A stretch of DNA of 64,000 bases from an uncultured Chlamydiae bacterium (GTDB lineage: Bacteria; Chlamydiota; Chlamydiia; Chlamydiales; JAJFMA01): positions 384,001 to 448,000 of the forward strand of contig CAVQMM010000001.1 in NCBI GenBank assembly GCA_963713615.1, read 5' to 3'. Shown here one piece after another: positions 1 through 64,000 of the stretch. Both the position numbers and the translations under genes were made by a program. Each line of letters opens with the position of its first letter. The stretch's first letter is position 1. The notes below the pieces were generated by a model. It searched no databases and was not told the DNA's origin. It saw nothing but the letters and a program-made list of their open reading frames with translations.

Positions 1-1041
1 GTCCTGCATTTGCTTCGAGAGATGAAATGTAGAAGCGTTGCTCAACCGTGGTTTTGCCTTTGATGGTTCTCTCGGATTCAATCAAGATAGCAGATTTCAA
101 GCCAGGCCATTTGCCTATGCTGCTAAGCTCATTTAGATCAGAGCTAGCCCAACATTTTCGACATTCAATTCGACCATGACCCTTGTCATATTCCTCATGC
201 TTGGTTCCATTAAATCCATTCCAAGCAGTCTTCTTCCAACCCTCGAATAGGCCTTGTTCACCTTTACGGTCAGAATTTCGGTCGGACGAAAAAGGTCGGA
301 TGTCGTGGTTTGTGACGAGGGCATAGCGCCAGCTATGTCCGAGGAGCAAAACGCGACAGACGATCCTTTTGCAGTCGACCGAAAACTGACCGCAAAGGTG
401 AATAAGGCCCTCGAATAGTAGCTTGATGTCTGTGTGAAGCGTGCCTTGGTTGCCTTTCAGTCCTAAAATATAGTCTCCTTTCTGTTCAATGATTTGGGCC
501 GCAATCTTTCTTTGGCACCCCATTGCATCCATGGTGACTATCTGACCCTCCAAATCTAACATAGCAAGAAGCTCAGGCAGAGCTGTGATCTCGTTGGATT
601 TGCTATCAACAGCTACTTGCCCTAAAACTAAACGGTTTTGCGTAGCCCAGGCAGACACTGCATGTAAGGCTTCTTTACCATTCTCAGGATTGGCGCTTGC
701 GCGAGCTGTTTTGCCATCAATCGCTATGACCTCTTTGCAGGGCTTTTTCAACGTGTTTGTAAATTCTACAAAGCAATGATGAAAGGTCTTTGGATTGAGC
801 CTAGACATTACACGCCCAAATGTATCATGGGATGGTACACCATTAGGCAGAGGGACAACCGCTGCAAAAAGATCAAAATTAGCTTCACAATAATCGTGCA
901 TTCCCACCCATTCATCAATACCAGCCATAGCTGAACAGATGGCGATGAAGATAATACTCATTAAGGGATGTTTTTTGTGCGATCAATTCTGGGATCTTCA
1001 ATTTGCTGAAAAACAATCTTAAGACGCTCTGCTGCTGACAT
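1..1041 (-). pseudogene. ISAs1 transposase, frameshifted near the 5' end, with an in-frame MITE insertion
   Basis: Manual translation gives MSAAERLKIVFQQIEDPRIDRTK, then a frameshift at the T6 run 971-976. The frame resumes with PSHDTFGRV, IAIDGKT, SNEITALPELL, VTMDAMGCQ, LKGNQGTLH, DKGHGRIECR and RFYISSL, all ISAs1 motifs. Confidence 0.9.
250..409. mobile_element. 160-bp palindromic MITE, copy 1
   Basis: TIR GGCCTTGTTCACCTTTACGGTCAG / CTGACCGCAAAGGTGAATAAGGCC. 8-bp target duplication CTCGAATA at 242-249 and 410-417. Confidence 0.95.
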
Positions 1042-2567: not shown

Positions 2568-3047
2568 CTAAATTTTTACGATTAAATGCGGAGCGTTAAT
2601 TTTAATATATTTATATATGATCTGCCTTGAAAAGGGTGGGAGGCATTCAAACATTTTTTCGTCGTACATATTAAGTCCAACACAAATTTCGCCAATCGAC
2701 TCTGAGCAGTCATCAACTATATGGCCTTGTTCACCTTTACGGTCAGAATTTCGGTCGGACGAAAAAGGTCGGATGTCGTGGTTTGTGACGAGGGCATAGC
2801 GCCAGCTATGTCCGAGGAGCAAAACGCGACAGACGATCCTTTTGCAGTCGACCGAAAACTGACCGCAAAGATGAATAAGGCCAACTATATCATCCTCTTC
2901 ATCTGGTCTAGCTGCGGCTGTAACTAGAGCAGTCAGTGCCCGTAAATCCTTATATTCCCTAAGGTCAATAGCAGCATCGCTTCGTTCATCTTCTCTAGCC
3001 GATTTATCTAGTAAGATATCTATTAATAATTGAGTTCGATCTTTCAT
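2568..3047 (-). CDS. Putative immunity protein with a 56-aa in-frame MITE insertion
   Basis: Same family as 14043..14405. The frame stays open across MITE 2723-2882. Confidence 0.8.
   Translation of the reverse strand: MKDRTQLLIDILLDKSAREDERSDAAIDLREYKDLRALTALVTAAARPDEEDDIVGLIHLCGQFSVDCKRIVCRVLLLGHSWRYALVTNHDIRPFSSDRNSDRKGEQGHIVDDCSESIGEICVGLNMYDEKMFECLPPFSRQIIYKYIKINAPHLIVKI
2723..2882. mobile_element. 160-bp palindromic MITE, copy 2
   Basis: Near-identical to 250-409. TSD AACTATAT at 2715-2722 and 2883-2890. Confidence 0.95.
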
Positions 3048-10541: not shown

Positions 10542-10595
10542 CCAGCCCGGTCCATACCCGCAGGGCGAGTATGGACCATCTGTTCTAATTTCTTC

Positions 10596-10928
10596 TCAGA
10601 TCACTGGATCGTCTCCGATAGTCTTTCTAGTGCTACCCTCCGGAGCTTCCAAGTCTTCCTCCAATTTTGCATGAAAGGCATAGATCTGTTCCAGATATTC
10701 TGCAACAAGTTCTCTAAAACGTCTACGTAGATCTTCCTCCAAGCCAGCTACTAGGGCCAATAGCTGAAAAATCCCTTCTCGCACCTCTAAAGATGGGGCC
10801 ACATAAGTCCTGTCTCCACTTAGGGCGTTTTCTATTGAGCTATCGGCTCTACGCTCAAGCTCAGCCACCGCATTTCGTAAATCCTCAACCAAAGCCCTAC
10901 TGAGAAGTATTTCTGAATGATGTTTCAT
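10596..10928 (-). CDS. Hypothetical helical protein carried inside IS21
   Basis: ATG at 10928 is preceded by GAGG and follows the istB stop (10931). About 110 aa. Confidence 0.6.
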   Translation of the reverse strand: MKHHSEILLSRALVEDLRNAVAELERRADSSIENALSGDRTYVAPSLEVREGIFQLLALVAGLEEDLRRRFRELVAEYLEQIYAFHAKLEEDLEAPEGSTRKTIGDDPVI

Positions 10929-10930
10929 GT

Positions 10931-11755: not shown

Positions 11756-11771
11756 GAATCTTCTCCTAAAT

Positions 11772-13268: not shown

Positions 13269-13569
13269 CCTAACTCTCGCTTAAGTTTGGGGACGTCAGC
13301 ATTCTAAATGCTCTCTTGCAAGCTCCCAAGAAAGGACTTCAGACGAGAAGGATCTGGGCCCGGGTGATTCTGGCCTGTTTTTAGGTGCCAACCGACTGTC
13401 GTCGGGCGGTGATGGGAGGTGCCAACCGCGTGTCGCGGGTCGGTGATGGAGGAGGTGCCAGGAGGTTGTCGTCAGTCGGTGATGGAAGGTGCCAACTCGC
13501 TGACGCCGGGCGGTGATGGAAGGTGCCAACTGCGTGTCGCCGAGGTGCCATCATCACTGTCGCCGTACA

Positions 13570-27516: not shown

Positions 27517-27676
27517 GGCCTTATTCACCTTTGCGGTCAGTTTTCGGTCGACTGCAAAAGGATCGTCTGTAGCGTTTTGCTCCTCGGACATAGCTGGCGC
27601 TATGCCCTCGTCACAAACCACGACATCCGACCTTTTTCGTCCGACCGAAATTCTGACCGTAAAGGTGAACAAGGCC
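27517..27676. mobile_element. 160-bp palindromic MITE, copy 3 (opposite orientation, intergenic)
   Basis: TSD CTAAAAGG at 27509-27516 and 27677-27684. Confidence 0.95.
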
Positions 27677-37097: not shown

Positions 37098-37805
37098 ATG
37101 GCTTCTACAAAAATTCGTAAACCTTATGTTTCTCGAGCTTTGCCACCAAAGGCGATTGAATATCACCAGGGGAAGATGGACCTGGTTTTTCGCCCTTTTG
37201 AAGCTTATGATGCGCCAAAATGTCAAAAAGTCCTGAAAGACACTATTCCTTACCTTTACAATTATATGTTATGGCCGAACCAGAAATGGGATCTAAAGGA
37301 CTGCCTTCATTGGGTGGTTGAACGCCACGCGGTGTACTATGCTGGCTCTGAATTTGAGTGGGGAATGTTTGATGCCCGTAACGATGAGCTGCTCGGGGTC
37401 GTTGGCATCATGCCCTGCACACCCTGGAATCCAGATTGCTTTGAAATCGCCTATTGGACGGCTCTTAAACATATGAAGAAGGGGCTGGCAACGGTCGCCA
37501 CACAAGTTGCCACGGCCGTTGCGTTTGAATGCCTAGGGGTCACGCGTATGCAGGCAGGCTGTCTAAAGGAAAATCTTGCGAGCCGACGTGTCATCGAAAA
37601 ATGCGGTTTTGTTTATGAGGGTGAACTCCGAGCGTTTTATCCTCCACCAACAAAGCAGCAGCTCCAAAAAGTTCCCATAGTCGCTAGGGATCTCTTATAT
37701 GCTCTGCTTCCTTCAGACTGCCAGGATCTACCCTGGTATGCATCTACTCTGAAGGCTGTATCGATTGTTCCATTGTGTGGTGACAAATTTCAGCTTTCCT
37801 ACTAA
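37098..37805 (+). CDS. RimJ/RimL-type GNAT N-acetyltransferase
   Basis: FEIAYW...KKGLAT...ENLASRRVIEKCGFVYEG. Start taken at MASTK. Confidence 0.88.
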   Translation: MASTKIRKPYVSRALPPKAIEYHQGKMDLVFRPFEAYDAPKCQKVLKDTIPYLYNYMLWPNQKWDLKDCLHWVVERHAVYYAGSEFEWGMFDARNDELLGVVGIMPCTPWNPDCFEIAYWTALKHMKKGLATVATQVATAVAFECLGVTRMQAGCLKENLASRRVIEKCGFVYEGELRAFYPPPTKQQLQKVPIVARDLLYALLPSDCQDLPWYASTLKAVSIVPLCGDKFQLSY

Positions 37806-40800
37806 GGACATAGTTCTTGAAAGACCTTCTCTAATGCGCTTCCTGGGAAGTCGTTTTTGTTCGCGTCTTTCCACCTCAGGATCTGATTGAGGAATAGATC
37901 ACGCATTTTGGCAGCGTCATGTGTTTTTAGCCATTGCGTCAACAGGGGGATTTCGCTTTTGCTATAGTCGCTGCGGCCCCCAAGGAACTTGGCTTGGATC
38001 TTAAGTTTCATAAACTCGGGATTTGCCTCAAGCTCATCCTCTTGAATGCGCTCGCGCCCAGTTCGAACTAATCCTGTGCTGAGGTTGTACAGGCCCAAGC
38101 GTACCTCGCGTTTTTCTTGCATACTTGTTTTCCCATCTTGGGTTAGCATCGCATCGAACCATTTGGCGTCATTATGATCGAGCAGGAGGAGATCCAAAGC
38201 ATTGGATGCTTTATCCTGAATGACCAGCGCCCATTGGTTTTCCTTTTGGGATAGACCAAAGGGTGCAAAAGGAAGCTTATATGTTTCAACATGCTGATGA
38301 ATAGGCATTTGATTCAGGCTCACGAATAGATGATGTTTAAATGCCTGTGCCAGTTCAGGCTTCATACCTTTGGCTTCTAGACCTTCTGCCAGGCGAATAA
38401 GGGGACCGTTGGAGTTCCCTTTAAAAGGTTTATAACCGTAACTGTGGATATCTTTAGCGCTATTTGGGTCGAAGTAATCGCGTTGGAAAAGTTTGGGTCG
38501 TGGCCAGGTAAGCACTGGTAAGGCTGTATCCCATTTATCAAATTGATAGGACCGATCGGTTTCCGTTTCTGCTTCTACGTTGATTTCGGTTTCCTGTTCT
38601 TGCTGTGTTTCTACGGACACTTCATGTTCATATCCGCTGATGTGTTTCACAGTGTCTGGAAGATAGGGCAATTCTCTTTCCGCGAGTTCATGCAGGGCCG
38701 TTGCGATCGACTTGGTATTGGCATATGTGGCTAATGGAGTATGCTTTTTGAAGGCTTTGACGGCTTTACTGTCTAGTATATGCTGAATTTCCGACTCAAC
38801 AAAATCACGAGCTGCGATTTCCATATCTAGTTTCCCCATTCGCTGGAAGGGCATCTCTGGCATTTTCTTCTCAAAGAGATCTTTGACATCCATGTAGATA
38901 ACGGCAACCTGACTATTTGGTATGTTGAGATCGAGCAGTGCCTTGACCACATGACCGATGGGCAAGGCATGGAGCTTTTGTGACAACGAACGTTGGTTGT
39001 GGTCGCCTTGTCGGGTAGCTTCGTAATACTGCACATATAGAAGAACATCTTTCAGGGTAAGCATATTCCCCTTTGGGCGGCTGCCGATGGCTCCGAGAGT
39101 CTCCTTTATGGAATCATAGTCTTCTTGTGATACGGCAAAACTAACAACTTGGCCCTGACCCAATTGACGTAGGCGCCACACCGCCTGAAGAAGGTCTCGC
39201 AGGCTAGTATGACGACTCACCGTTACCACTGCCGTCATTGTTTGACTGAGTTTTAGATCGGAACCTGTGGTGTGTTTTTGATCCCAGTAGGCTATTAGAT
39301 GCTCTTTGGGATAGCTGTCAGTCAGGCGCTGCGGTGCATGGTTGCGCTCGACGACCCAGTGTTTATCATCCTCACCATAGTAGACCACACCGGTAATCGA
39401 GGTATTACCCCAGCAACTTTGATTTAGGATTTCGCGGGCGACGGCTTCATTAGACAGGCCGCGGAAGAGACCTGCGGTGTCGATTAGCGAACCGGGGGGA
39501 ATCTCTCGCTTTTGATAGATGATTTCTAGGTTTTTTTGGATCGCATTGTCGGATCTACTCGTTGCAGAGATGATGTCGACTTGGTGGGGACTTTCACTCC
39601 ATAACGTAAATAGGGTTTTTTCTGCGGTGTTAGATAGTTGGGCATCGCTAAAGGTTGGTGGATAGGTCTGAGCATTCCAAAGTGTGCCGCTAAAGCCTCG
39701 GATATCGTCAAAGAGGGCTTTATAAATCTGTGCATTGGTGCTGAGTTGAGTGTCATAGATGCGAATCTGTGGCAATACATGATATCGCAAGAGGCGCATC
39801 AGTAGCTTGGGGGTGGCGTTTACATGGGCGGTGACTATTTTCAGCTCTTCTGGTGTTAGTGTGAATAGGCCAATACTTTCGTTCGGACCGCGCATTTCTT
39901 TAAATAGTTCTAAGGCTGCGATGGAATGACTTCGGTTAGAGACCTTTTTACTTTTTTTGTTACCTGAAATGATGCCTTGGAGACGTGTGATTTCCAGTTG
40001 AACGACCTCTTCAGGCAGACCCTGCTCCAGATACATCTGGATGGTATAGTTAAGGATTTCGAGCTCATTACCAAACTGAGAGCCTATGGAGGGGCTGCCC
40101 AAGTGATAGGGAATTGCCAAATACTTTGTTTTAGGGTTCCTGTATTTAGGGTGCGAGGGGCCATAATGCATGTTTAGATAGCGTTTGGCTGTGAGGGGAA
40201 TTAAACGATTCAATTCCTCATATAACACTGTCACAATATTTCGAATCCGATCGTTCGGAAGCTTACCTATATCAAAGTCGCGGTTCTTTCCAAGAAGGTA
40301 GTTGGTGAGCTCTTGGTGTTCTGCGGGCTGAAGGGCTGCTAGAAACCTCAGCCAACCTTTTTCCTGTTTTCCTATAGAGCCGTCGAGGGCTTTTCGGATT
40401 AAAGTGGTTTTAATCCGGTCGCCGTACTGAAGGTCAGTAAAGGCCGGCGCCCCGGAGTGCTTGACAAAGCTAAAGGTGATTTGTTTCAAAATATAAGCAT
40501 GTGTAGTCATCTCTTCATAGAGATCACACACCACCCGGATGAGTTCTGTCTGTAAGGTTTGGCTTTCGCCCATGGCAAAATGATGAGATTTTAAAACATC
40601 AAAGACAAAGTCGACCTCGTCTACTGTTACGCTACTAGACGTTTTTAGTAGAGACAAGATCTGTCTGAATAGGGTAACTCCACTATCCAACTCGACCTTA
40701 TCCATGCTTTTACCATAGGCATCTAGCCAAACTAGGAAATTGAGGAAGATACTCTGTATTGTGGAATTGGTCATCATGACAACACGATGAGCATCTCTAG

Positions 40801-43800
40801 CGAATAGTAGGCGCTTGTGTAGGTTAGAGAGATCATCCGTTTTCAGGCGTCTTTGTCGGTTTAATGTGATCACTTCTACAGCTTGGTGAAAGCTACTGCC
40901 CAGATGCTTCTGAAGTTCTTCCGCTTTGGAGGCCAGCAGGGGTTCTGGCATCACTACAAGGGCGAGATTGTCTTGGTCGGTGAGCGCTTTACTAATCAGA
41001 GGTAAAAGAACGGCTGTTTTACCAGATCCCATAATCATTTCGAGAAGGGCTCCTAGGTAGCGTCCTTGGCTATTCCATTGGGAATTTTTTAGGTTATCAA
41101 GTCCATCTAATTGGGCGGGTCTTAGAAGAATTCCCATATAATATTCGAAGACGAGGTATTCAGGATGCGCGTCTACCTCATACTGGCGCTGAGCCTGAGC
41201 CTGTGTAGCAAATTCCTGGATTAGTGCATTGATTTCTTTGTCGTTCTTATTTTCGGTGAGCTGCTTTTCTAGCAGATAAAGCTGTGTGATGATGCGTTCC
41301 ACCTGCTGCAAATAAGTAGCCTCGATGAGGTATTGGAGGAGGTTCTGGCTGATATTACTGATCTGGTCTAGTGTTAACGACGCATTACGTTTATAGAGCT
41401 GTTCCGCATCTCGGTGTAGGAACCAGATGATAAGCTCATCTAAGGTGATCGCTTGGTTAGTGTCGCCAAGGAAATTCAGCCCCTGAAAAGCGTCTTTAGT
41501 TTTGTCTATAGGAGGTTGATTTGCTGCTTGAAGAATCTGTTTCTTGCGATAGGCTAAGGTGCGTTTTCCATGTCCTAGAGATTCGATTAGCTCCTGTCTT
41601 AACCTAGCCAGCTCGTCAGGGTGGGTTAAGGTGTAGTGATCCGTTAATGCCTCCGTAGCTGTAGCGTAGGCTGTGATGCGGTTGCGGAGCTGATCAAACG
41701 CGACTTGCGTGGATCCACGCAGCGAGGGAACATCAAGAGCCTTATCGAGGGCGAGAGCGGTCTTAGTAAGCTGAGAGAGTTGTTGTGCTGTGGCTGTTTT
41801 CTTGACGAGGTAGTTGTCTAGTTCCAGAACAATAGGATCTTTCAAAAGCTTGCCTTCAAGGAATAAACAAACCTGAAGTTGTAGGGTAGCCTGTGCTGGG
41901 CCCATGTCCCTTTTATAGGGGTCATTTGCCAGCTCTATGGCAGTACTAGTAGGTTTGTTGGATTCATTCGTGTTGGTTGTTACTGTTGGACGAATCTTCT
42001 TGATAACATCTTGTTGGGCCTGGTTAATCGGATCGCAATAATAGCGTGTTAGCCACTCTGTAGCTTTTTCTGCAGCCTCTGGGGAGGTTGATAGAGATGC
42101 TTGCAGATTTTTTTCTAGTTCCGCCGATGAAGGGAATTGACTGGGGAAATAGAGAACCGCTTCGAGGTGTTTTGCTAACGCAACTTCATCCTTTTCAGAG
42201 CCATCTGATGATGAATGACCTTGGATGATCCGTAGAATCAGGCCCAATTCGTTCTGGAGTTCTGTATGGGAGAGCGCAGAAGAATAGGTGATGCCGGTTA
42301 GACTGGATAATAGGGCCTTTTGTGCTGTGGAAGAGAGCTCCCCTTTGACCAGTTTGTATAGATCGATAAATTGGTGCCAAAGGGATCCTCTTAGAAGCTT
42401 TAAAGGATTCGTTTGTGAGGGCGCTTTGGAATGTTGGTAATGTTGCACTAACCAACGAGTCTGTATACGATAGTAGTTCAGCTCGGTGAATCCCGGCGTG
42501 TAGAGTGATGGTACATTTTGTTGTATCGGTTCCGTCTTTCCTTCCTTTTTCAGGGCAACAGCTTTGTCATCTATCCGCAGAGGCTGTAGGCTATTCAGGC
42601 GGTTTACAATTCGGCCTTTGGCAACTTGATCTTCCCAAAGTGGCTGGGTCAAGAGGTTCTCGATGATCAAAGCTTCTTCTTCTGGAAGTAGCCAACGGTC
42701 ATCTAAGTAGTCGGCGTTGTCTAGGTAGGATCGATAGGTACTGATGGGGTTTTCCAGGGTCAATGCATCGGCCCCAAAGTCGCGCATATGACGCAGGAGA
42801 AGGAAATGAGCTTGCAATCTTAGAGCTTGGGCACGAGGGTCCCCATCCTTGTTGTTTTTGCCAAGCGCAACAATCCATTGCAAAATGGTTAATTCATCAG
42901 CGGAAAAGTGGTTTAGCTGTGAGCCGTAGCTGCGTAAGAGAGCATTTGCGCTGTTATATTGGTGCTTCCATAGGTATACCAGGGCAAGATAGAGCCTGCC
43001 AGATTCGGATGAGGGGATAAGCTGGCCGTTATTTGGGTTAACATGGTAAACAAAATACTGGTGCTTTTTGATCCACTGTTCAGGTAATTCTCTGTTTGGA
43101 ATGGTTTGAGTAATTAAAGACCCTTGCTCTAGTTCCTGGAGGCTTTGAAAAGGAAACAGAATGAGTTGACGAGTGTCTAGGCGGTTCCGCTGTTTTTGTA
43201 GAATCAAATAGTGAGACACATCGCCAAGCTGGGGCAGTTGCTGGACAGGAGCCAGTGCATAGTGACCTAGGGCGGGAGCTACAAAGGTAAGGCGACCGCC
43301 GCGCTCTTCTACCTGAAAGTTTAAGTCAAAGCGTGGTAGTTCAATCGTACGCGGCTTGCCACCCGCTTTATCTACCCAAATCAGGGTGTAGGCAGGATCT
43401 TCAAAGCGCGAAAGCGTGGAAAAATTGGGGTCTTCTTTTTGTGGGTGATAGAGCACTAAGCCACTTGGCTGACCCTTTGCTGTAAGAAGGTGAATGTCTT
43501 TCATTTCACCATACCCTGTAAGATCTATGCGGTACCTGGGCTGGCTAGAGCCCACCGGCATGACCAGAACGTGTGGAGTGGGGCCAGCAGCATACCAGTG
43601 AAGATGTCCTAAGATCAACGCATGACTCTTGAGTTGCTTTAGAAGAGATTCACGTTCGATGAGTCTATACAGATTATCCTCTCGCTGTTGCTGCAGAATC
43701 ATCTTGCCACTACTGGGCTCTAGAAAGGCAAAATAGACGCCATTTGCTCCATGAAAGAAGTGGTAGATATCACCAGGGCTCTTAGAGGCAAGCATACGTT

Positions 43801-46800
43801 GGTTATCGCCAAAGACCTCTCTAAAGCTGCTGTGGTTAGTAATTTCTTCTGGGAGGAATCCTAGATCTCCAGCTTCAAAGATGCCTTCGACAGCGTTGAT
43901 GTGTATCCATGGAGAGCCTTCCCCTACGATGATTGGGAAAGTAGATGAGGTCCATCTAGAGGGTAGTTGCCAGTTGGGTAAAGGTTGGTTGGGTCTTAAG
44001 GTGGCATATACCTTATTGAGAACTTTACTGCCTTCTGTGGAATCCAAAATGCGTTTTAGCTCCGCACGGTGTGTACGTAGCAAATCCCGAAGTTCAATCT
44101 CCGCTTCAACCTGCCATGAATGCGCTTTTGGGATATATAGCTTATGGTAGATCACTCCAGTGAGCATTTCTGCAGCGGTGTCAGCCGTAAATGAGGAGGC
44201 GTTGACATAACAGCGTGCGAGGTCTCTGTAGATTAGGCTTTTTAATTCTTCGCTAAGGTGAGGAAGCGTTAGCAGGTTGCGTAACTCCTGCTTCATATCG
44301 AGGAAAGGAGAATTATATCCCGTTGGCAGAATTTTGAGATTGTGTGTGACATAGTCATTGAAGAGACGATTCATTTCTAGGAAGTAGGCTGCGGTATTAA
44401 TGTCCCCCAAATCGCGATAAAATTGGAACTGTTCCTGACAAAAAGCGGCTAATTGATCGAGAAGCCTTGCGGCACACTGCGGATCTTTGGAGAGTTCGGC
44501 AAAGAGCAGACCCGGCTCGAAGACTAACTGTTTAAAGAGCATTTGATAGGCCGGTTCCTTGAGATAGTGAGATCTCTGGTGAAAGTAGGCTATGGCTTGT
44601 AGTACCTGCAGTTCTTTGATGCTGCTTAGAAGTAAAAGCTCCCGCGTAGCTTGCAGGCCGAGATCGACGTTGAGATCCTTTTTTGGATCTTTTAGAATCA
44701 CGGCGTTTGGCTCAATGCGCTGTCGATGTGGTATTGACCCACTGGCAGGCCCAACAGTATCTAGCTTTTCTCGGTTGGTGTAAATATTTTCGATGGAGGC
44801 GTCTGGAAAAGCATCTTGTGCGCGCTCTAAGTGATAGGAGAGAGCTATACTGATTGGACTATATTGCGTTTTATCCTTGAAAGGCTGGATTTTGGGTTCT
44901 TCGGGGTTATCCTCATTTGTATAGTCGAAAAATGTAGTCCGAGCGTTCCAATGGAATATTTGGACATCTCTTATAGTAGTCACCCAGCGTTCACCAGGGT
45001 ATGAAATGCCGCGCCGGTAGTAGAACTGTTCGAAGGAAGTGGAAGGTGCCAATGAACCGCTCAGAAAGAAGTTGGTAATCCACGAGATGTCACGAACATC
45101 ATAAAATATTCGGGGAAGAATGTTCGGCCTATCACCATGAAGAACAGGTTTACCACTCGACGAATGGATATATTTATGATAAAAAAGTGCAAAAGCGGCT
45201 ATGTAGGACTCATTTTGACCTACAAGATCCGGATATTGCTGTTGTATTTTTGCACGTACCTCCGGTTTGTTGATCCATTCCTTAGCCCATTTGACATCTT
45301 GCCACGCAATTCCCCCATCCCAGGTTTGATAGTAGTCGCGGAAAATGTTCTCATGACGATCTGATTCAAAGATTCTGCGCTGGCCGTCAGATCTCATTTT
45401 GTTGGTCACCGTACCTGCTGGCAAGGCCTCGAAGCCGAAAAATGAGATCGGTCGTTGACTTCGCTGTTCCACAGGATCCACGGTATCCCAATGGTTTTTT
45501 ATTATCCGATATTGCTCATCCCACTCCGGATCATATAGCTGGAAAGGACTCCACGACTCATTTAAAAGCTCTTCAAGCTGCGGCTGAAATAGGCTGGGAA
45601 GCGTGACACCCGTTTGGCTTCTATATTGCCGTGTGATTTTGTCTATAAAGGTCAGTAACTTGACTTGTGCTAGATATTCCTTAGACTTCAACTGAAAAGT
45701 TCTTCGCGGATCAAGATTAACGGCTGTGAGCATAGCTCGCAGGTAATCTAGATTGAGTTTAGAGAGGGCTTCGATGATGCCTTCCACATGGACTGGAGGT
45801 AGTTCCTTCCATAGGACATCGGAATCAAGAAGGGGAAGAACAAGTGCAAGTTGATTAAATGCGTCAATCACATTCAAAAATTGTTTTTTTTCATTGGCGT
45901 TAGCAAAGAGTTTTTGATAGCTTTCAAGGTCCGTCAACAGCGTGCTAGCGCGAGGCTTCCATGAGCTCAGATCCAGTTCAACATAGGGTCCCGAGGAGTT
46001 AGCTACCTTATGGCTACTCACATCGATAGGCGCATTAAGGCTTAATGAGGAGCTATCAGAGACATAACCGTTCGCTAATGGCGTAAATCGGGGAGCTGTT
46101 AATGTCTGCCGGATAGCAGTCAAATGCTCCATCTCTAACAATTCAGCAGCGATTTGGTTCGCACGTGTATGGGCAAGCTGAAGCTCTTGGCTGTCAATCC
46201 ACCCCTTTTTATAGGCACGTGTGGTGATGGCTGCAAAGCTCTCCAGGCTTTTGCGGAGGAGGCGTTGCGAACGTTCTTCGTTTAACACATGGGCTCGGTT
46301 ACCTTTAAAGTAATCTCCTAGAGCCTTTAGTTGTGTTTCAAATTCAAAATGATTAAAGCTCGTGCTATCAGGAAAATGTTGTTGCAAAACAGCCGAAATA
46401 GATCTGTAGGCACAGATACCTGATCGCTGTGGTTCGATGACACTTTCCTTTTCGTAGAGGTGTGGGCTGGATCGGCCATTTAGCTGGGTCAAAATTGTTT
46501 CGTAGAGGTCTACTGGCTCCGCAGCTTTTGGAGTCCCTTCGGAAAGACTAAGCTCTTGTAAAGCTCGCAAAAAGGGCTTTGCAGTAATTTTTCTGTAGGT
46601 GACATCGAAGACTTCAATAAATGGTAGAACGAGTTCTTGCGTACCTATAAACGCGAAGGTATGATAGCCATTAATGGCTTCCCCTGTGTTGTAGAGACGA
46701 ACTCTATAGAGTGAATTGCTTTGTGCCATTACCTCCAAGGCTACAGTATGGCCAGGCCATCCGAGGGGTAAGAAGAAGCTCTGGCCTGGGGTAAGTGTTA

Positions 46801-48661
46801 GCAGGCGTTTGTTTATTGCAGCTTCAAATTTTTCAAATGTATCTCTGTAGGCTGCTAGAAGAGTCTTGGCATCGCTTAGTAGGGTCTCAAGATGCTTTAA
46901 TGTGGCTAACTCGGCGTTCAGTTGCCTCGGGTCTGCTGCCTTAGCTAAAAGAGCCCGTTTGGCAGCAATCATTGACCTTACGATACTCAGACGGAAGCTT
47001 AGCATATCTCCCGACCATGCCCCTTCTAGCTTGCTACCTGAGCCAAAAAAATCCCCTAAAACATGGAGTAATAATTTGTCGGACACTTCAATCTGCGTGG
47101 AATCTAGGAATTGCTCTAGCGGCTGCGAAGAGGGGCTGTTGTCTTGATCGATTGATTTGATGCCTGAACAACCCTTCGTGGAGCATGCCTTACTGTTTTT
47201 CTCGTAGGTGTCCGTATAGATTGACAGTTGTAACTTAAAGAGGTCTGTACCTGTTTTTAAGAGGGTTCTATTAGTAAGCGTTTCTATAGATGTCTCTAGG
47301 AGTGCAGGGAGGTTGGGAAAGTCTTCGCCAATATCATTTGCAGAAGTAAAGAGCGTATATAGGGGATCTGCAATATAAATGAGATGTTCTGTGATAGCGC
47401 GACTGCCGATCATTAGTCGCAAATGGGCTGTGATAGTCTTCCCTGTTATCTTAGCCTTATTCAGTTCAGTTAAGATTGTCTCTATGGCCACTTTGGGCTG
47501 TTCTAAGGAGATTCCTGGTGTCATAGAGTATAATTCGGCATAGCGTAACTTTTCATTCACATATGCCTTTACGCCAGGGACGCTTTCTTCAAGATCAGGA
47601 ACGATAATGCGGTGAAGAATTTCGAAGATGACGGCATCTTCCAAACGTGTGTAGGCTTGAATTTGTTTTCCGGTCATGCCCGGATGTGCCAATAGGGCAC
47701 ATTGTAGGGCAAAAAAATCTCCGAGAGTCAGTTTTTCGGGTAGGCGTTGGAAGAGCTCCTTGATCAACTTTGGTTTCAACGCTTTTGTTAGATTGCCAAA
47801 TTTGTTTTTTGCCCATTCTTGAAAGAATGGCTTATCCCACATCTCGGAAACAAGATCTTCTAGCAGTATTTCGGCCGTTGACCACTCAAGTGGTGATTTG
47901 GTCTTTTTTGCTGAATCATCATTATTTGCCGACGGTTCAGTTTTACGTTTGGCTTCAGCTGGTTTTTTGGAGTCTTCTTCGGCTTTACGTTTGTCTTCAG
48001 CTTGTTTTTTTTCGTTTTCTTCGGTGTTTGGTTTTTTTGAGTCAGTCTTAGTTGTCTTGATTTTTGCAAAGCCCTCTGGCGTGAAGGTATAACCTATGAG
48101 CAAACCGCTTGCTTTATCCATTGGAATGCTATCGACTAGATCATTCCAATTTTTCCATTGTCCTTTGAAGAAAATTTGAGGGGTTGAGAGTCGTCCAAGA
48201 CGTATCTGTAAACTGCTGTTGTGAAGCTTATTAGCTAAGATGAATCGTTCTAGGGTGGGAGTCTGTTCTAGGGACCAGACATCAAAATCATAGAAATTCG
48301 CCAAGGCCAATCGCCCCATTTTAATGCCATCCGCTGCCTTGTAGATTGGTAGAGCATAGTCAATGCATGCCTTAGCTAGGTGCTGATTTAACGTGTGTAC
48401 TTTCAGTAGTTCGTAAATAAAGGCAATGGCTTTTGGGTCTGGCTGGTTGTTTATGTTACTATTAATAATAACTTTCCATCCATTCAAGTCGTCAGTGACA
48501 CGAATTGTCTGTTGTCCGCTAAGCGCTTTGCACAGGATTTTTTGATTTTCTTCAGTGAGGGTTAAAGATTTATCGATCGTCAAAGTGTAAGGTGTCGCTG
48601 CCTCAAGTGCTAAACATGAGACGATAAAAAACAGACAAATAATTCTTGATATTGTTTTCAT
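37802..48661 (-). CDS. Giant 3619-aa protein with a signal peptide, a cysteine-protease-like motif and a DUF3638-type P-loop/SF2-helicase-like module
   Basis: MKTISRIICLFFIVSCLALEA signal; GHTVA..YNTG..QRSGIC; MGSGKT, VDEVD, GFSGT, TGSDLK and LLQAVWRLR. Confidence 0.8.
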   Translation of the reverse strand: MKTISRIICLFFIVSCLALEAATPYTLTIDKSLTLTEENQKILCKALSGQQTIRVTDDLNGWKVIINSNINNQPDPKAIAFIYELLKVHTLNQHLAKACIDYALPIYKAADGIKMGRLALANFYDFDVWSLEQTPTLERFILANKLHNSSLQIRLGRLSTPQIFFKGQWKNWNDLVDSIPMDKASGLLIGYTFTPEGFAKIKTTKTDSKKPNTEENEKKQAEDKRKAEEDSKKPAEAKRKTEPSANNDDSAKKTKSPLEWSTAEILLEDLVSEMWDKPFFQEWAKNKFGNLTKALKPKLIKELFQRLPEKLTLGDFFALQCALLAHPGMTGKQIQAYTRLEDAVIFEILHRIIVPDLEESVPGVKAYVNEKLRYAELYSMTPGISLEQPKVAIETILTELNKAKITGKTITAHLRLMIGSRAITEHLIYIADPLYTLFTSANDIGEDFPNLPALLETSIETLTNRTLLKTGTDLFKLQLSIYTDTYEKNSKACSTKGCSGIKSIDQDNSPSSQPLEQFLDSTQIEVSDKLLLHVLGDFFGSGSKLEGAWSGDMLSFRLSIVRSMIAAKRALLAKAADPRQLNAELATLKHLETLLSDAKTLLAAYRDTFEKFEAAINKRLLTLTPGQSFFLPLGWPGHTVALEVMAQSNSLYRVRLYNTGEAINGYHTFAFIGTQELVLPFIEVFDVTYRKITAKPFLRALQELSLSEGTPKAAEPVDLYETILTQLNGRSSPHLYEKESVIEPQRSGICAYRSISAVLQQHFPDSTSFNHFEFETQLKALGDYFKGNRAHVLNEERSQRLLRKSLESFAAITTRAYKKGWIDSQELQLAHTRANQIAAELLEMEHLTAIRQTLTAPRFTPLANGYVSDSSSLSLNAPIDVSSHKVANSSGPYVELDLSSWKPRASTLLTDLESYQKLFANANEKKQFLNVIDAFNQLALVLPLLDSDVLWKELPPVHVEGIIEALSKLNLDYLRAMLTAVNLDPRRTFQLKSKEYLAQVKLLTFIDKITRQYRSQTGVTLPSLFQPQLEELLNESWSPFQLYDPEWDEQYRIIKNHWDTVDPVEQRSQRPISFFGFEALPAGTVTNKMRSDGQRRIFESDRHENIFRDYYQTWDGGIAWQDVKWAKEWINKPEVRAKIQQQYPDLVGQNESYIAAFALFYHKYIHSSSGKPVLHGDRPNILPRIFYDVRDISWITNFFLSGSLAPSTSFEQFYYRRGISYPGERWVTTIRDVQIFHWNARTTFFDYTNEDNPEEPKIQPFKDKTQYSPISIALSYHLERAQDAFPDASIENIYTNREKLDTVGPASGSIPHRQRIEPNAVILKDPKKDLNVDLGLQATRELLLLSSIKELQVLQAIAYFHQRSHYLKEPAYQMLFKQLVFEPGLLFAELSKDPQCAARLLDQLAAFCQEQFQFYRDLGDINTAAYFLEMNRLFNDYVTHNLKILPTGYNSPFLDMKQELRNLLTLPHLSEELKSLIYRDLARCYVNASSFTADTAAEMLTGVIYHKLYIPKAHSWQVEAEIELRDLLRTHRAELKRILDSTEGSKVLNKVYATLRPNQPLPNWQLPSRWTSSTFPIIVGEGSPWIHINAVEGIFEAGDLGFLPEEITNHSSFREVFGDNQRMLASKSPGDIYHFFHGANGVYFAFLEPSSGKMILQQQREDNLYRLIERESLLKQLKSHALILGHLHWYAAGPTPHVLVMPVGSSQPRYRIDLTGYGEMKDIHLLTAKGQPSGLVLYHPQKEDPNFSTLSRFEDPAYTLIWVDKAGGKPRTIELPRFDLNFQVEERGGRLTFVAPALGHYALAPVQQLPQLGDVSHYLILQKQRNRLDTRQLILFPFQSLQELEQGSLITQTIPNRELPEQWIKKHQYFVYHVNPNNGQLIPSSESGRLYLALVYLWKHQYNSANALLRSYGSQLNHFSADELTILQWIVALGKNNKDGDPRAQALRLQAHFLLLRHMRDFGADALTLENPISTYRSYLDNADYLDDRWLLPEEEALIIENLLTQPLWEDQVAKGRIVNRLNSLQPLRIDDKAVALKKEGKTEPIQQNVPSLYTPGFTELNYYRIQTRWLVQHYQHSKAPSQTNPLKLLRGSLWHQFIDLYKLVKGELSSTAQKALLSSLTGITYSSALSHTELQNELGLILRIIQGHSSSDGSEKDEVALAKHLEAVLYFPSQFPSSAELEKNLQASLSTSPEAAEKATEWLTRYYCDPINQAQQDVIKKIRPTVTTNTNESNKPTSTAIELANDPYKRDMGPAQATLQLQVCLFLEGKLLKDPIVLELDNYLVKKTATAQQLSQLTKTALALDKALDVPSLRGSTQVAFDQLRNRITAYATATEALTDHYTLTHPDELARLRQELIESLGHGKRTLAYRKKQILQAANQPPIDKTKDAFQGLNFLGDTNQAITLDELIIWFLHRDAEQLYKRNASLTLDQISNISQNLLQYLIEATYLQQVERIITQLYLLEKQLTENKNDKEINALIQEFATQAQAQRQYEVDAHPEYLVFEYYMGILLRPAQLDGLDNLKNSQWNSQGRYLGALLEMIMGSGKTAVLLPLISKALTDQDNLALVVMPEPLLASKAEELQKHLGSSFHQAVEVITLNRQRRLKTDDLSNLHKRLLFARDAHRVVMMTNSTIQSIFLNFLVWLDAYGKSMDKVELDSGVTLFRQILSLLKTSSSVTVDEVDFVFDVLKSHHFAMGESQTLQTELIRVVCDLYEEMTTHAYILKQITFSFVKHSGAPAFTDLQYGDRIKTTLIRKALDGSIGKQEKGWLRFLAALQPAEHQELTNYLLGKNRDFDIGKLPNDRIRNIVTVLYEELNRLIPLTAKRYLNMHYGPSHPKYRNPKTKYLAIPYHLGSPSIGSQFGNELEILNYTIQMYLEQGLPEEVVQLEITRLQGIISGNKKSKKVSNRSHSIAALELFKEMRGPNESIGLFTLTPEELKIVTAHVNATPKLLMRLLRYHVLPQIRIYDTQLSTNAQIYKALFDDIRGFSGTLWNAQTYPPTFSDAQLSNTAEKTLFTLWSESPHQVDIISATSRSDNAIQKNLEIIYQKREIPPGSLIDTAGLFRGLSNEAVAREILNQSCWGNTSITGVVYYGEDDKHWVVERNHAPQRLTDSYPKEHLIAYWDQKHTTGSDLKLSQTMTAVVTVSRHTSLRDLLQAVWRLRQLGQGQVVSFAVSQEDYDSIKETLGAIGSRPKGNMLTLKDVLLYVQYYEATRQGDHNQRSLSQKLHALPIGHVVKALLDLNIPNSQVAVIYMDVKDLFEKKMPEMPFQRMGKLDMEIAARDFVESEIQHILDSKAVKAFKKHTPLATYANTKSIATALHELAERELPYLPDTVKHISGYEHEVSVETQQEQETEINVEAETETDRSYQFDKWDTALPVLTWPRPKLFQRDYFDPNSAKDIHSYGYKPFKGNSNGPLIRLAEGLEAKGMKPELAQAFKHHLFVSLNQMPIHQHVETYKLPFAPFGLSQKENQWALVIQDKASNALDLLLLDHNDAKWFDAMLTQDGKTSMQEKREVRLGLYNLSTGLVRTGRERIQEDELEANPEFMKLKIQAKFLGGRSDYSKSEIPLLTQWLKTHDAAKMRDLFLNQILRWKDANKNDFPGSALEKVFQELCP

Positions 48662-49510
48662 ATTTCCATGATTGTTTACTTAGCAAAAGTCCATAGCATA
48701 TCATAATTATTAATTTTTGTAAATCAGTTAAGGCGAAGTTTTTGTGTTATTAATTTTTATTAATTGAAGTGATTGAAGGGGATTGGCAATGTTTGACTTC
48801 GTCCATGATGTCCATTAGACCTATCCTACATATCATGCATATCCATGAATCATGTTTTTTTGTTTGCCGCGTCCATACTGTCCATATGAGGTAATTTCAG
48901 AAGTATTTGGGCCCTCATGGATCGATTCTTTGGAAAAAAATCACTGTTTTTTGTGAGAAGGCGATTCTAGAGAGCTTAAGTGGTATGGCACTATCCAGTC
49001 TGGAAAGACAGGCTTTTCTCCCTTCCCAGGCCCGAAGGGTCGATATTGCAACAGGCCATGGCATCGCCATGGTATATGCCAGGAAGGGATTTCGCAGTCT
49101 GAAGGACTGCTACAAGACGCCAGTTTACAAACACCATTTATGCATGCGCTTTATGGCAGCCCTACAGGCTGCTAAAACCGTTTTGGCATATACCATGGCG
49201 ATGCCCCATAGGCCTCAACCTAACAGGTCTTTTGAGCTTATATCTCAATGACTTAGGACTTCACAATCGTATCTCGGCGCGCAGCGCTTTGGAGTGCGGT
49301 CGCTTGCGACCGCTTTTCGTTCCTTGGGACGGCAATGCTAAACGGCATTGTATGGATTCGTCGAAGGCTGCATGTACTAACTATTTTACCCTTAGGGAAT
49401 TATAGTGATGCCGTTGCACACGACCGTCGCAAGGAACCCAAAGCGGTCGCAAGGTAAGCGTCAATTGAAGCCACCTTTTTCGTAATTCCGCGAGGTTCTA
49501 AGTTTTCTCC

Positions 49511-50092
49511 ATGACCCTAACCATGGAGATACTAATGGATTTCAAAAGGAAGCGTTCTGAGTGGGCTCGACGCATAGACCAATGGATGGCGAGCGGTCAG
49601 AGTGGCCGCAGGTGGTGCCTAGAGAACAATATAAGCTACCAGCAGCTCTTGTACTGGTACCAACGCTTTAAAGTTAGCCCGCCCGACCACATTTCCTCGA
49701 CGGGTTGGATAGACATTACCCTGCCCGAGCTCAAGCTTTCGCTTGATCAGAAGAGCGTCTATCTAACCCTAAAGTCTGCGAGCAAAACTCTGAGGTCGTC
49801 ATATCAGAAAAACAAGGGTGTCTTTCTCTATCAAGAGCCGATCGATATGCGAAAGGGATTTGAGTGCTTGAGCAATCTTGTTGACAGTTCGTTCTCGGGC
49901 GAATTTACCTGCGGGGCCTACTTCGTTTTTTTAAATCGTCGTAGAAATCTAGTGAAGGTCTTTTACTGGGATGGTAATGGTCATGCCGTCTGGTACAAGC
50001 GACTTGAAAAAGGAAGTTTTCGCAATGGAAGCATTCCAGATTCCGCTATCGATCGTCGAGAATTTCTAATGTTGTTGGAGAGTAGTCATTGA
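49511..50092 (+). CDS. Fused IS66 accessory proteins TnpA-TnpB (Orf1+Orf2)
   Basis: N-half W...SGQS.R.WC...ISYQQLLYW; C-half PIDMRKGF...FVFLNRRR..VK..YWDGNG...YKRLEKGSF. Confidence 0.85.
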   Translation: MTLTMEILMDFKRKRSEWARRIDQWMASGQSGRRWCLENNISYQQLLYWYQRFKVSPPDHISSTGWIDITLPELKLSLDQKSVYLTLKSASKTLRSSYQKNKGVFLYQEPIDMRKGFECLSNLVDSSFSGEFTCGAYFVFLNRRRNLVKVFYWDGNGHAVWYKRLEKGSFRNGSIPDSAIDRREFLMLLESSH

Positions 50093-50174
50093 GCCTAAAA
50101 TCCTAAAAACAATGTGCATTTTATTAGATAAAATACTTGATAATAGAGGGGGTCTGTGATATGATTTAGAGCAT

Positions 50175-51719
50175 ATGGAAACCTCAACACTATCACTAGA
50201 ACAGCTTCAATCGGAAATTTATTCCCTGCGAAATGAGAATAGCTTTCTCAAGGAGCAGCTTGAATGGTTTAGGCGTCAGATTTTTGGGAAACGTTCGGAA
50301 AAAGTAGTCGACGATGGCGGTCAACAACTCTACCTGGAAGGTTTCGAAAATCTTGGTTCCGAAGAGCAAAAAGAGACAATAAATGTGCCTGCTCATCGAC
50401 GGGTTAAGCAGGGGCGCAATGGCAAAGATAAAATTACGCTTCCAGACAATATTCCCGTTCAACGCTGTATTTTAGATTTGCCAGAGGATCAAAAAGTTTG
50501 CCCTACAACGGGTGAAGCCCTCGTCAAAATTGGCGAAGAAGTCACTCACAAAATAGCGCATACGCCAGGTAGCTACTACGTCAAGGAGCTAGTACGTCCC
50601 AAGTATGCATGTAGAGCACATAGTGAAGAGGGCGTTTTTATCGCAGATTTACCAGATAGCATTTTTCCTCGCTGTCAAGCCGATGAGAGTCTTTTAGCCA
50701 GTGTGATCGTGAAAAAATTCGCCGATCACCTTCCTTTATTTCGTCAATCGGAAATCTTAGCTCGCGAGGGCATTCTCATCAGCCGACAAATACTTTGCAA
50801 GTGGGTAATGCGCTGTGGATATGCCTTAAAGGCGCTATATGAAGAAATGATTGCTCGCGTGCTCAGCAGCAACAATGTTTTTGTGGACGAATCTCCTGTG
50901 GACATGCTTGTCCCTGGTAAGGGAAAGGTGCACCAGGCTTTTATGTGGGTGATCGTTGGAGGGCAGGAAAAAAATCCGCCTTATCGAGTCTATCATTTTC
51001 GCACGGACCGCTGCCACAAGCATGCTGTGGAAATACTAGCTGGATATAAAGGTGTTGTCCATTCGGATAAATATGGAGCCTATGAAGCACTGGCTAATAA
51101 GAAGCAATTCACTTGGTGTCCATGCTGGAGTCACATTCGGCGCAAGTTTTTCGACGCTGTAGGTGGCGATAAAAAATTTGTTAGCTGGGTACTGCGCAAG
51201 ATAAAATATCTATTTATGTTAGAGAGAGTTGCTTGGGAACGTTCTCCAGAGGAACGTCTGCGGATAAGACAAGAGAAAGAAGCTCCAATAATAGATGAGC
51301 TGACTGCACGCATCAAGGACCGGCTGGTTAATGGCAAGGCTCTTCCCAAATCGAATCTAAGGGAGGCTCTAGGCTATTATTGCAGCTTAATTCCCCATCT
51401 GAAAAACTACACCCAACATGCATTTGCGCGTCTCGACAACAATGTAGCGGAGCGAGCGATACGCCCTCTAGCTATTGGCCGCAAGAACTGGATGTTTATT
51501 GGAAGCGAGGAGGGTGGGGAAGCTTCCGCCGTACTGCTAAGCCTGGTACAGACCTGCCGCGCGATAGGAGTCAACCCCCACGAATACCTAGAGGATGTGA
51601 TGAGGCGCCTGCCAGCCCATAATTCTCAAAAACTTCACGAGCTTCTGCCCGACGCTTGGGCTGCCGCCAGGCGACAAGCAAAGGCCTCATCCACCTCATC
51701 AGCCCCCACTGCCGAATAA
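50175..51719 (+). CDS. tnpC: IS66 transposase TnpC
   Basis: FGKRSEK, KFADHLPLFRQ, VDESP, CWSHIRRKF and LDNNVAERAIRPLAIGRKNWMF. Confidence 0.97.
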   Translation: METSTLSLEQLQSEIYSLRNENSFLKEQLEWFRRQIFGKRSEKVVDDGGQQLYLEGFENLGSEEQKETINVPAHRRVKQGRNGKDKITLPDNIPVQRCILDLPEDQKVCPTTGEALVKIGEEVTHKIAHTPGSYYVKELVRPKYACRAHSEEGVFIADLPDSIFPRCQADESLLASVIVKKFADHLPLFRQSEILAREGILISRQILCKWVMRCGYALKALYEEMIARVLSSNNVFVDESPVDMLVPGKGKVHQAFMWVIVGGQEKNPPYRVYHFRTDRCHKHAVEILAGYKGVVHSDKYGAYEALANKKQFTWCPCWSHIRRKFFDAVGGDKKFVSWVLRKIKYLFMLERVAWERSPEERLRIRQEKEAPIIDELTARIKDRLVNGKALPKSNLREALGYYCSLIPHLKNYTQHAFARLDNNVAERAIRPLAIGRKNWMFIGSEEGGEASAVLLSLVQTCRAIGVNPHEYLEDVMRRLPAHNSQKLHELLPDAWAAARRQAKASSTSSAPTAE

Positions 51720-51986
51720 ATCGCCAGATGGCCTCAATTGACGCTTACGTCGCAAGCGACCGCACTCCAAAGCGCTGCGCGCCGAGATACGATTGTTAGG
51801 CTTAGGTTGAGGCCTATGTGGCGATGCCCTGGCCTGTTGCAATATCGACCCTTCGGGCCTGGGAAGTGATAAAAGCCTGTGTCCACTCCAGATAGTGCCA
51901 TACTGCCTGAGCTTTCTAGAATCGCCTACTAGCCAAAAAAGATAACCTTTTTTCCCAAGGATCGATTCTCAAGGGCTCAAATAATT

Positions 51987-52146
51987 GGCCTTGTTCGACT
52001 TTTCGCGCAGTTTTCGGTCGGCTGCGAGGCGCCCATCTGCAGCATTCGCCTCCTCGGCAATAGCTAGCGCTATTCCCTCGTCGTCGACTGCTGCATCTGG
52101 GACCTCTCGCCTGACCGAAATTCTGCCCGGAAAGCCGAACAAGGCC
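51987..52146. mobile_element. 160-bp palindromic MITE, copy 4 (diverged subfamily)
   Basis: GGCCTTGTTC...GAACAAGGCC with TSD AAATAATT. The empty site is visible at about 31263-31270. Confidence 0.9.
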
Positions 52147-52223
52147 AAATAATTTTGCAATTACCTCATATGGACGAAGCCAAACGGGCCAGGGGTAAAT
52201 CCCCTGAGCCCGCTTGCTAAGAG

Positions 52224-63665: not shown

Positions 63666-64000
63666 GTGCGACCGGTATGTCGTTAAACTAGAAGGTGAAA
63701 GTCCTTTACGGGCTCTAGTAAGGAGAACCGTTAGAGAAGGCAAGGGTGTCCATCGCGAGATGGAATCTGAAGAAAGCCGTGTAGATGCAACAGGTTAGCA
63801 GGAAAGTTTAACGAATTACCCGGTGAGAGCTGTATTCATGCATGGAAGAGTACTGACAAAAGAGGGAAAACCCATAGCTAGCGGTGTCTCGGAGAGATGA
63901 CGTGAACGGTACAGCAGTCAGCAGACGGCATAGTAACTCGTCGAAAGACGACGAAGGCCCGAACATGAAAACAAAGGAAAGACCCTAACTTCTATGACAA
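63666..64000 (+). ncRNA. 5' part of a group II intron (class IIC-like), running off the right edge
   Basis: Starts GTGCG. Contains GGTGAAAGTCC, GCAAGGGTGTCC..GGAATCTGAAG, TTACCCGG and AGTCAGCAGA.GGCATAGTA..GAAGGCCCGAAC. Inserted right after a stem-loop. Confidence 0.85.

Follow-up and report, generated by a model that had tools for sequence, protein, structure and literature searches.

How a 160-bp repeat can differ extensively in its interior from its neighbors, yet keep its length and still fold end to end, is the question raised by positions 51987 to 52146 of the window (the whole 64,000-nt stretch of DNA from an uncultured Chlamydiae bacterium that was analyzed). The initial annotation described this repeat as the fourth copy of a MITE (miniature inverted-repeat transposable element), diverged from copies 1 to 3. 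It proposed that selection acts on a full-length RNA or single-stranded DNA (ssDNA) structure with a conserved internal-loop motif, beyond simple recognition of the terminal inverted repeats (TIRs).

Two MITE families and their partner elements

The coordinates, the 160-bp length, and the stems given for copy 4 in the initial annotation are correct (Table 1). Read on the minus strand, copy 4 lines up gap-free with the window's three other copies. It departs from theirs at 45 of its 160 positions but has in common with them GACGAGG, CCGAGGAG, and ATAGC-N4-GCTAT. Both types fold end to end, with RNA minimum free energies of -104.9 and -103.9 kcal/mol (z of -12.3 and -14.1), and none of 200 shuffles equaled the RNA fold stability of types A and B. 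The compensatory changes were also borne out: 24 of the 64 predicted pairs of type A differ in type B, 17 of them on both sides, and 16 of these 17 still pair. Seven pairs changed on one side only, and three of these still pair.

Table 1. Copy 4, its insertion site, and the other MITE copies, in window coordinates
Feature	Position	Strand	Basis or remark
MITE family B copy (copy 4), 160 bp	51987..52146	-	Well-folding strand is minus; 1 of 13 in genome
8-bp target-site duplication, left	51979..51986	+	Sequence; single copy in empty paralogous site
8-bp target-site duplication, right	52147..52154	+	Sequence; single copy in empty paralogous site
Left terminal inverted repeat	52131..52146	-	15/16 to IS-B right end; 13-14/16 to IS-A ends
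Right terminal inverted repeat	51987..52002	+	16/16 (22/24) to IS-B right end (G000:C1:1074398-1076015)
Conserved 75-nt core	52029..52103	-	Alignment and model
Near-invariant internal loop, 5' side (GACGA)	52078..52082	-	93-100% conserved, 57 elements
Near-invariant internal loop, 3' side (GAGGA)	52051..52055	-	93-100% conserved, 57 elements
Apical ATAGC-N4-GCTAT hairpin	52060..52073	-	Alignment, fold
High-copy repeat hosting copy 4, split by the MITE	51749..52167	+	Genome matches and aligned empty paralog
Family A copy	250..409	+	Inserted in frame within ORF-like stretch
Family A copy	2723..2882	+	Gapless alignment to copy 4
Family A copy	27517..27676	-	Gapless alignment to copy 4

The divergence of copy 4 is real, but it is not a lone copy: it has 12 siblings in the genome at 98.8 to 100% identity. 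Because of these near-identical siblings, the changes are placed between family founders. Nor is copy 4 a variant of copies 1 to 3, as it had been taken to be; it belongs to a separately amplified family with ends matching a second transposase. Copy 4 thus inserted recently and represents a second MITE family, family B.

The empty paralogous sites of copy 4, when aligned, carry a single copy of the target, and the insertion point is spanned by 137 of 650 genome matches to the host repeat, the best being 97.6% identical over 252 bp. This host repeat (51749-52167 and 49263-49453) belongs to a very abundant modular family with hundreds of fragments and no replichore bias. An IS66 element (TnpB and TnpC; window 49454-51748) with an 8-bp duplication is in the same repeat. 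Because the IS66 element and copy 4 both sit inside one host repeat, the site is a stack of three mobile elements. Elsewhere in the window are two giant ORFs with DUF3638 domains (15014-24631 and 37802-48661, 3205 and 3619 amino acids) and an IS21-family element (IstA/IstB; 10304-13569), the 238-bp perfect terminal inverted repeats of which contain 34-36-bp tandem units.

The host genome (G000, 3.97 Mb) has 117 copies of family A (113 plus 4) and 13 of family B. Each family is 160 bp long with 8-bp target duplications, and the duplication was found at 109 of the 129 TIR pairs of 150-170 bp. The elements have the anatomy of type II bacterial MITEs: they are shorter than 500 bp, contain no transposase, and have many dispersed copies; their 16-bp ends pair, the target duplication is 8 bp, and empty sites have one copy of the target; and the ends match the right end of the cognate insertion sequence (IS) at 15-16 of 16 positions around an interior that is not IS-derived. 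Core-less derivatives of 55-67 bp are also present (G000:C1:1056875-1056931 and about 11 similar sites), and some of these keep the 8-bp duplication. They apparently come from deletion between short internal repeats. All are scattered single forms, unamplified, which their small size alone could explain.

Open frames had also been reported for copy 4. They are present (three of six frames in each family), but we found no sign that they are selected. Plain shuffling, 2000 times per family, gave at least three open frames 20 times for A and 168 times for B; palindromic shuffling, again 2000 times each, gave at least two in 590 cases for A and in 957 for B. The reading frame was kept in 2 of 10 insertions into ORF-like empty sites. 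Thus, the open frames look incidental. Tolerance of in-frame insertion was rejected as well: element plus duplication is 168 bp here, yet 163-166 bp in several other families.

The MITE ends point to the partner elements. IS-A (G000:C1:1035800-1037682, or L001:801-2683) is intact, 1883 bp long, and flanked by an 8-bp duplication, and it encodes a 559-amino-acid DUF6399 protein. IS-B (G000:C1:1074398-1076015) encodes a DUF6399 protein 65% identical to that of IS-A. Family A ends match the IS-A ends at 16 of 16 positions and the IS-B ends at 12-14 of 16; family B ends match the IS-B right end at 15-16 of 16 positions and the IS-A ends at 13-14 of 16. Given this end identity, families A and B were likely moved in trans by DUF6399 DDE transposases. 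For family B it is the ends that identify the partner, because the sole full-length IS-B is damaged (about 93 codons are missing) and has no target duplication.

The predicted structure of the IS-A transposase (pLDDT of 83) has an RNase-H/DDE fold with a helical insertion, and its best whole-chain structural matches are Hermes (E=5e-5) and ISCth4 (Z of 12.2, rmsd of 3.5 over 245 residues). D166, D221, H243, and E473 are invariant, and the model has the D-D-E triad, the helical insertion, and the xxH motif of Mutator/IS256/hAT-like DDE enzymes. A PDB sequence search with the transposase profile gave no match, and the IS-A protein had no match in five other genomes, three of which carry GGC-ended MITEs. 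DUF6399, with more than 1500 homologues, looks like an IS family without a name; no description of it was found in the literature searched (main texts, largely outside the subscription journals). On the structural model, DUF6399 gains a probable role as a DDE transposase.

A shared core and its fold

The full-length structure, which had been proposed as the conserved unit, is not what is shared: ends and outer stems are freely exchanged, and the conserved unit is the inner core. The core consists, in order, of a GA/GA loop, a 7-bp stem, a 1x1 purine mismatch, a 5-bp stem, a GA-C-GA/GA-G-GA loop, a 9-bp apical stem, and a 4-nt loop.

Covariation was counted in two sets of elements, in both cases uncorrected for kinship between elements. 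Among 20 nonredundant elements (in which the loop was fixed by the search pattern), 93.7% of the cells are paired, and both sides have changed in 20 of 26 pairs, which none of 500 shuffles reached. Among 27 elements found by the covariance model, the alignment being fitted to that model, 91.2% of the cells pair and all 26 pairs have changes on both sides. Conservation across 57 elements was 93-100% in the GA-C-GA/GA-G-GA loop, 74-89% in the outer GA/GA, and 30-70% in most stem columns. (A viral match at 29.6 bits stayed in alignment A7 and model R2; it was dropped, together with the partial match L055, before the 57-element counts were made.) Wobbles in the helices set one strand apart, with 47 G·T versus 8 A·C (51 versus 18 in the second set), and it is also the better-folding strand in 20 of 20 elements, with RNA and DNA parameters alike. 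Because covariation, the G·T excess, and better folding are all on that strand, the fold is selected on one single strand. The covariation is strong and strand-specific. Together with the G·T excess and the conservation of the loop, it supports the central claim of the initial annotation, that what is selected goes beyond recognition of the TIRs and is a structure of one strand that includes a conserved internal-loop motif. We have high confidence that these elements form a MITE family and that the core which they share is selected on one strand, and this is far more secure than any mechanism.

Three known motifs were compared with the core and rejected. The hammerhead motif is CUGANGA/GAAA, and by eye the core has no GAAA and no third stem. 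The loops of the core, unlike a kink-turn, are symmetric and have no 3-nt bulge. The ssoA CS-6 motif is paired in the core and is not conserved. A neighboring hairpin (L033:461-592) scored 39.7 bits against the Clostridiales-1 RNA model, which has a gathering score of 48.

The same core is found under other ends. A third MITE family in the host genome has the same interior between IS66-type ends, and in another genome (G002) a B-like core is flanked by A-like ends. A pattern scan of genome contigs gave at least 79 loci, mostly titled Parachlamydiaceae or Chlamydiae; other titles among the pattern loci listed are Acidobacteria, Anaerolineae, Geobacter, Gemmatimonadales, and Thermoleophilaceae. 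Excluding loci with <100 nt on one side from the comparison of ends, these loci have many end types, some with TA-type flanks and others with a duplication that is 5, 8, or 9 bp long; the labels that we gave to end families other than IS66 and DUF6399 are presumptive. Three pattern loci without a model match (L035, L040, and L050) were judged to be chance, and two pattern matches in viral contigs, with unpaired spacers, were also taken as chance.

Of 151 genomes from the host phylum, 39 had a covariance-model match to the ~75-nt core, and in the small-genome family f37 none of 27 did. Outside the host phylum the core is patchy: when 32-48 candidates were scored per genome, it was present in 1 of 151 genomes of the Geobacter phylum (model R1, E of 1e-5) and in 1 of 101 genomes of the Gemmatimonadales phylum (model R2), the one genome being the seed in each case. 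Three seed genomes are nevertheless multicopy, with 71, 13, and 12 matches. The genome with 71 matches (G326, locus L261), 2.1 Mb long and titled Acidobacteria, has some that closely resemble the chlamydial GGC-ended families; its matches represent either cross-phylum transfer or a mislabeled bin. The model found no core inside IS-A or IS-B. Among 64 neighboring ORFs there was no gene that recurs beside the core, and an association with GIY-YIG was rejected, there being none at E of 1e-8.

Two unrelated genomes have two-core mirror elements of about 345-400 bp, with each core just inside one end (L182:9600-10100 in G102 and L268:1436-1800 in G328). In the host genome, a decayed IS66-ended core element (G000:C1:2417800-2417990, L107) abuts a remnant of the right end of IS-A, a possible snapshot of cores meeting new ends. 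Judged from these sequence comparisons, the core, old and folded, outlives the ends that carry it.

Once inserted, copies are not protected. In 36 variant A copies, 4 of 84 substitutions fell in the 10 loop bases, where about 5 are expected if substitutions are uniform. Because the loops are kept in founders but decay without restraint in copies once inserted, selection likely acts on the spread of founders and not for the benefit of the host.

Replication-strand orientation and its explanation

Origin and terminus of the host genome were placed from cumulative GC skew. Only 34 of the 126 copies have a folding strand that runs in the same direction as the leading strand (p=2e-7), consistently in all three chromosome segments; for family B alone the numbers are 5 of 13, which is not significant. 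There was no comparable preference relative to genes: in tandem gene contexts, 30 copies are sense versus 36 antisense. Target sites are A-rich on the element strand, and target preference alone predicts 48% leading. Five other abundant repeats in this genome are unbiased (115/227, 46/77, 49/94, 33/66, and 30/62), none of them being a comparable core-less long hairpin. Core-less minis (5 of 12 leading) are uninformative for the bias.

In other genomes, the replichore was assigned from GC skew in local windows no larger than 20 kb, a procedure that is correct at 108 of the 126 sites in the host genome. The first set gave 61 of 90 in the direction seen in the host genome, and a replication set, with the direction predicted beforehand, gave 27 of 43 (p=0.13). 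With two-core elements included, 88 of 133 agree. Among single-core matches 79 of 116 agree (62 of 90 for non-GGC ends), counts in which 17 two-core elements were removed after the data were seen, some windows overlap, and kin are not independent. Tallied by genome, the single-core bias is in this direction in 15 genomes versus 1, with 1 tie. Relative to genes, 29 are sense versus 26 antisense. Mirror-image two-core elements are unbiased (9 of 17), versus 8 of 10 for one-core elements in the same genome. The bias is flat with copy age (58 of 77 identical copies versus 26 of 36 diverged copies), which counts against simple loss because simple loss predicts growth with age. Thus, irrespective of end type, the leading-strand template tends to be the one that has the folding strand, and this is unrelated to transcription.

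A group II intron domain (Rfam RF01998) lies at window positions 63879-63959. A repeat starting at this domain is on the leading strand in 7 of 7 cases, and another repeat is so in 14 of 14. If they are intron pieces, both repeats are a positive control for the replichore assignment.

Why bacterial MITEs have long conserved hairpins is an open question to which RNA is the usual answer, and DDE transposases are thought of as duplex-DNA enzymes. Between the two substrates that the initial annotation had allowed, the replication-linked orientation and the lack of a gene-direction bias lean toward ssDNA over RNA. We tentatively favor, at a little short of an even chance, the reading that at the replication fork the core forms its fold in one of the two DNA strands, when single, and thereby helps the element spread. 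G·T pairs and tandem G·A loops would let one strand fold well, and their complements, A·C and T·C, would weaken the other. With the folding strand as lagging-strand template, the element would fold back, its two ends would pair, and the GA loops would be presented, perhaps for recognition by the transposase or a host factor. Fold-back would raise donor activity (excision or copy-out), so that the loops are kept in founders; it would also remove such copies faster, leaving survivors with the folding strand on the leading-strand template. Template switching, or recombination with the ends of an IS, could exchange the ends of the element, and a core could burst once it had gained ends fitting an active transposase. 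A parallel is found in integrons, in which the lagging-strand template favors attC folding, and in chromosomal integrons the strand that folds lies on the leading-strand template (from the available text of PMC8946536).

A broader form of ssDNA folding at the fork seems to us unlikely as a whole. The GA-loop core would be a portable ssDNA mobility module for unrelated DDE transposases (DUF6399, IS66, and TA-targeting), promoting excision or copying from the lagging-strand template, probably via a single contact, made by the host or the transposase, on the GA-C-GA/GA-G-GA loop. It would then be the core and not the ends that is the long-lived selfish unit, and two-core mirror elements would be its orientation-independent form. 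If ssDNA folding is correct, MITE interiors are functional parts that can move from one transposase family to another, and folding of the substrate couples small elements' DDE transposition to the fork. If instead the core acts as RNA, or the bias is a by-product, this is a well-defined but more ordinary repeat superfamily. The core makes the hairpin question testable, with a defined 10-base motif, an intact partner gene, variants that naturally have no core or two cores, and a signal in the replication strand that points to DNA.

The orientation bias could itself be a by-product, as any asymmetric hairpin might be lost from the lagging template. In E. coli, SbcCD cleaves lagging-template hairpins (available text of PMC3315005). 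SbcCD cleavage was rejected as the source of the bias here: there was no match to sbcD in the 99%-complete genome, in which 13 of 14 controls were detected. The host genome thus has no sbcD match despite well over 100 long imperfect palindromes.

Hairpin loss as a by-product is also part of an explanation by selection on an RNA fold, which we rate as somewhat unlikely. Read-through transcripts would form a long irregular hairpin, the GA loops of which would determine how RNase III/E treats it or would be bound by an RNA-binding protein of the host and so make founders tolerable or mobile. The architecture, rich in G·U and with purine loops, is RNA-like, and the G·U frequency and tandem GA suit RNA equally well. 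In two-core elements the cores are where read-in transcripts would meet them, and MITE transcripts with stable stem-loops and compensatory changes have been reported for bcr1 (available text of PMC3184786 and PMC10969869). However, orientation relative to genes shows no preference in either set above, loops are not spared as copies decay, and RNA-type tetraloops are scarce (GNRA in 2 of 35 and UNCG in 0 of 35). Rfam searches of the window and 14 related loci gave nothing at gathering score, with only subthreshold miRNA-type hairpin scores over two cores. In three low-depth metatranscriptome contig sets, the contigs of which carry neither strand nor ends, only a 33-base piece and a 22-base edge touch the MITE, so that these sets are uninformative on RNA.

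It is quite improbable that the bias arises at insertion, through contacts between transposase and replisome (the beta clamp) to which the core is irrelevant, the core being kept for, e.g., synapsis of ends 160 bp apart by cruciform extrusion or duplex protein binding. Such an origin would fit the flat age profile and the A-rich target sites on the element strand, and several IS families, including ISL3, show lagging-strand bias and bind the beta clamp (available text of PMC3971601). But the bias has the same direction under unrelated end types, and the other abundant repeats in the genome are unbiased. A cruciform needs both strands, which the one-strand G·T and G·A asymmetry would disfavor.

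Conversion alone is very improbable and already largely refuted. It holds that repeated intra-element template switching made the arms symmetrical and that the loops are inherited leftovers. The initial annotation had named such conversion as the explanation that competes with selection. Conversion does occur in the outer stem: symmetrizing outer-stem changes are enriched in variant A copies, with 12 G·T-to-Watson-Crick changes on 8 positions (some of the symmetrizing changes may be ancestral states), and copy-specific paired ends are found in three other genomes (G065, G084, and G097). But it erases loops instead of keeping them. In two A copies, positions 122-126 were converted to the left-arm complement, turning a conserved loop into perfect pairing; yet across elements the loop bases are far better conserved than most stem columns. 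In addition, a strand-symmetric process gives equal G·T and A·C, not 47:8. The least probable explanation is a domesticated host regulatory element (a small RNA [sRNA], a terminator, or a sequestered ribosome-binding site) that is kept at its loci: GAGGAG looks like a Shine-Dalgarno sequence, some families have an ATG 3-5 nt downstream, and MITE-derived sRNAs are reported in Coxiella (available text of PMC5896051), but the majority of copies, identical and flanked by target duplications, are recent, neighbors are unrelated, orientation to genes is random, and the ATG is missing in family A.

Comparison with known systems

The DUF6399 partner resembles the IS256/Mutator, ISL3, and hAT-type DDE systems in its RNase-H core with a helical insertion, in the D/E-x-x-H after the second Asp, and in elements with an 8-bp duplication and GG ends. 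Unlike them, it reaches no Pfam or NCBIfam transposase cutoff and matches only DUF6399. No ISL3 model was listed among its matches in the Pfam and NCBIfam scans, and the likeness to ISL3 is a presumptive one of motif.

The E. coli rpsB-tsf spacer, which we take to be an ERIC/IRU element, likewise has a long imperfect hairpin with tandem GA/GA below a short apical stem and a 4-nt loop, and it folds better on one strand. Its single tandem GA, however, sits 6 bp from the apex, whereas the double loop of the core sits at 9 bp. This one E. coli spacer gave no match, at E of 0.001 with R1 or at E of 0.05 with R2, that would indicate ERIC/IRU homology. Rickettsia palindromic elements differ as well: here 2 of 10 ORF-like insertions keep the frame, and 93 of 103 copies are outside such sites.

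Integron attC sites are recombined by the IntI integrase at RYYYAAC/GTTRRRY boxes. As described in the available text of PMC8946536, they share with the core an imperfect palindrome, unpaired bases that single out one strand, and placement on the leading-strand template. In contrast to attC sites, the MITEs are dispersed single copies with TIRs, 8-bp duplications, ties to DDE transposases, and unrelated neighbors, and no cassette array was seen. The IS200/IS605 family, according to the available text of PMC5027513, also uses strand-specific ssDNA hairpins and is coupled to the replication fork. There, however, the folding strand is enriched on the lagging-strand template, whereas here it is depleted (34/126), the ends are those of a DDE partner and not of an HUH enzyme, and an 8-bp target duplication is present.

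The closest relatives in form are type II MITEs: Chunjie of Geobacter, QMITE2 of Coxiella, Nezha, nemis/Correia, and bcr1 are short, noncoding, and dispersed, with IS-matching TIRs, a target duplication, and an end-to-end fold (available text of PMC3184786, PMC10969869, and PMC5896051). MITEs with stable folds and compensatory changes are already known from these sources, compensatory changes having been reported for bcr1 in the first two. In the literature searched, there was no description of the core or of one core under unrelated ends. As those type II MITEs are described in the available texts, Chunjie and QMITE2 being compared by description only, the elements analyzed here differ from them in having one core under unrelated transposase ends, a near-invariant loop, a one-strand fold, and an orientation linked to replication.
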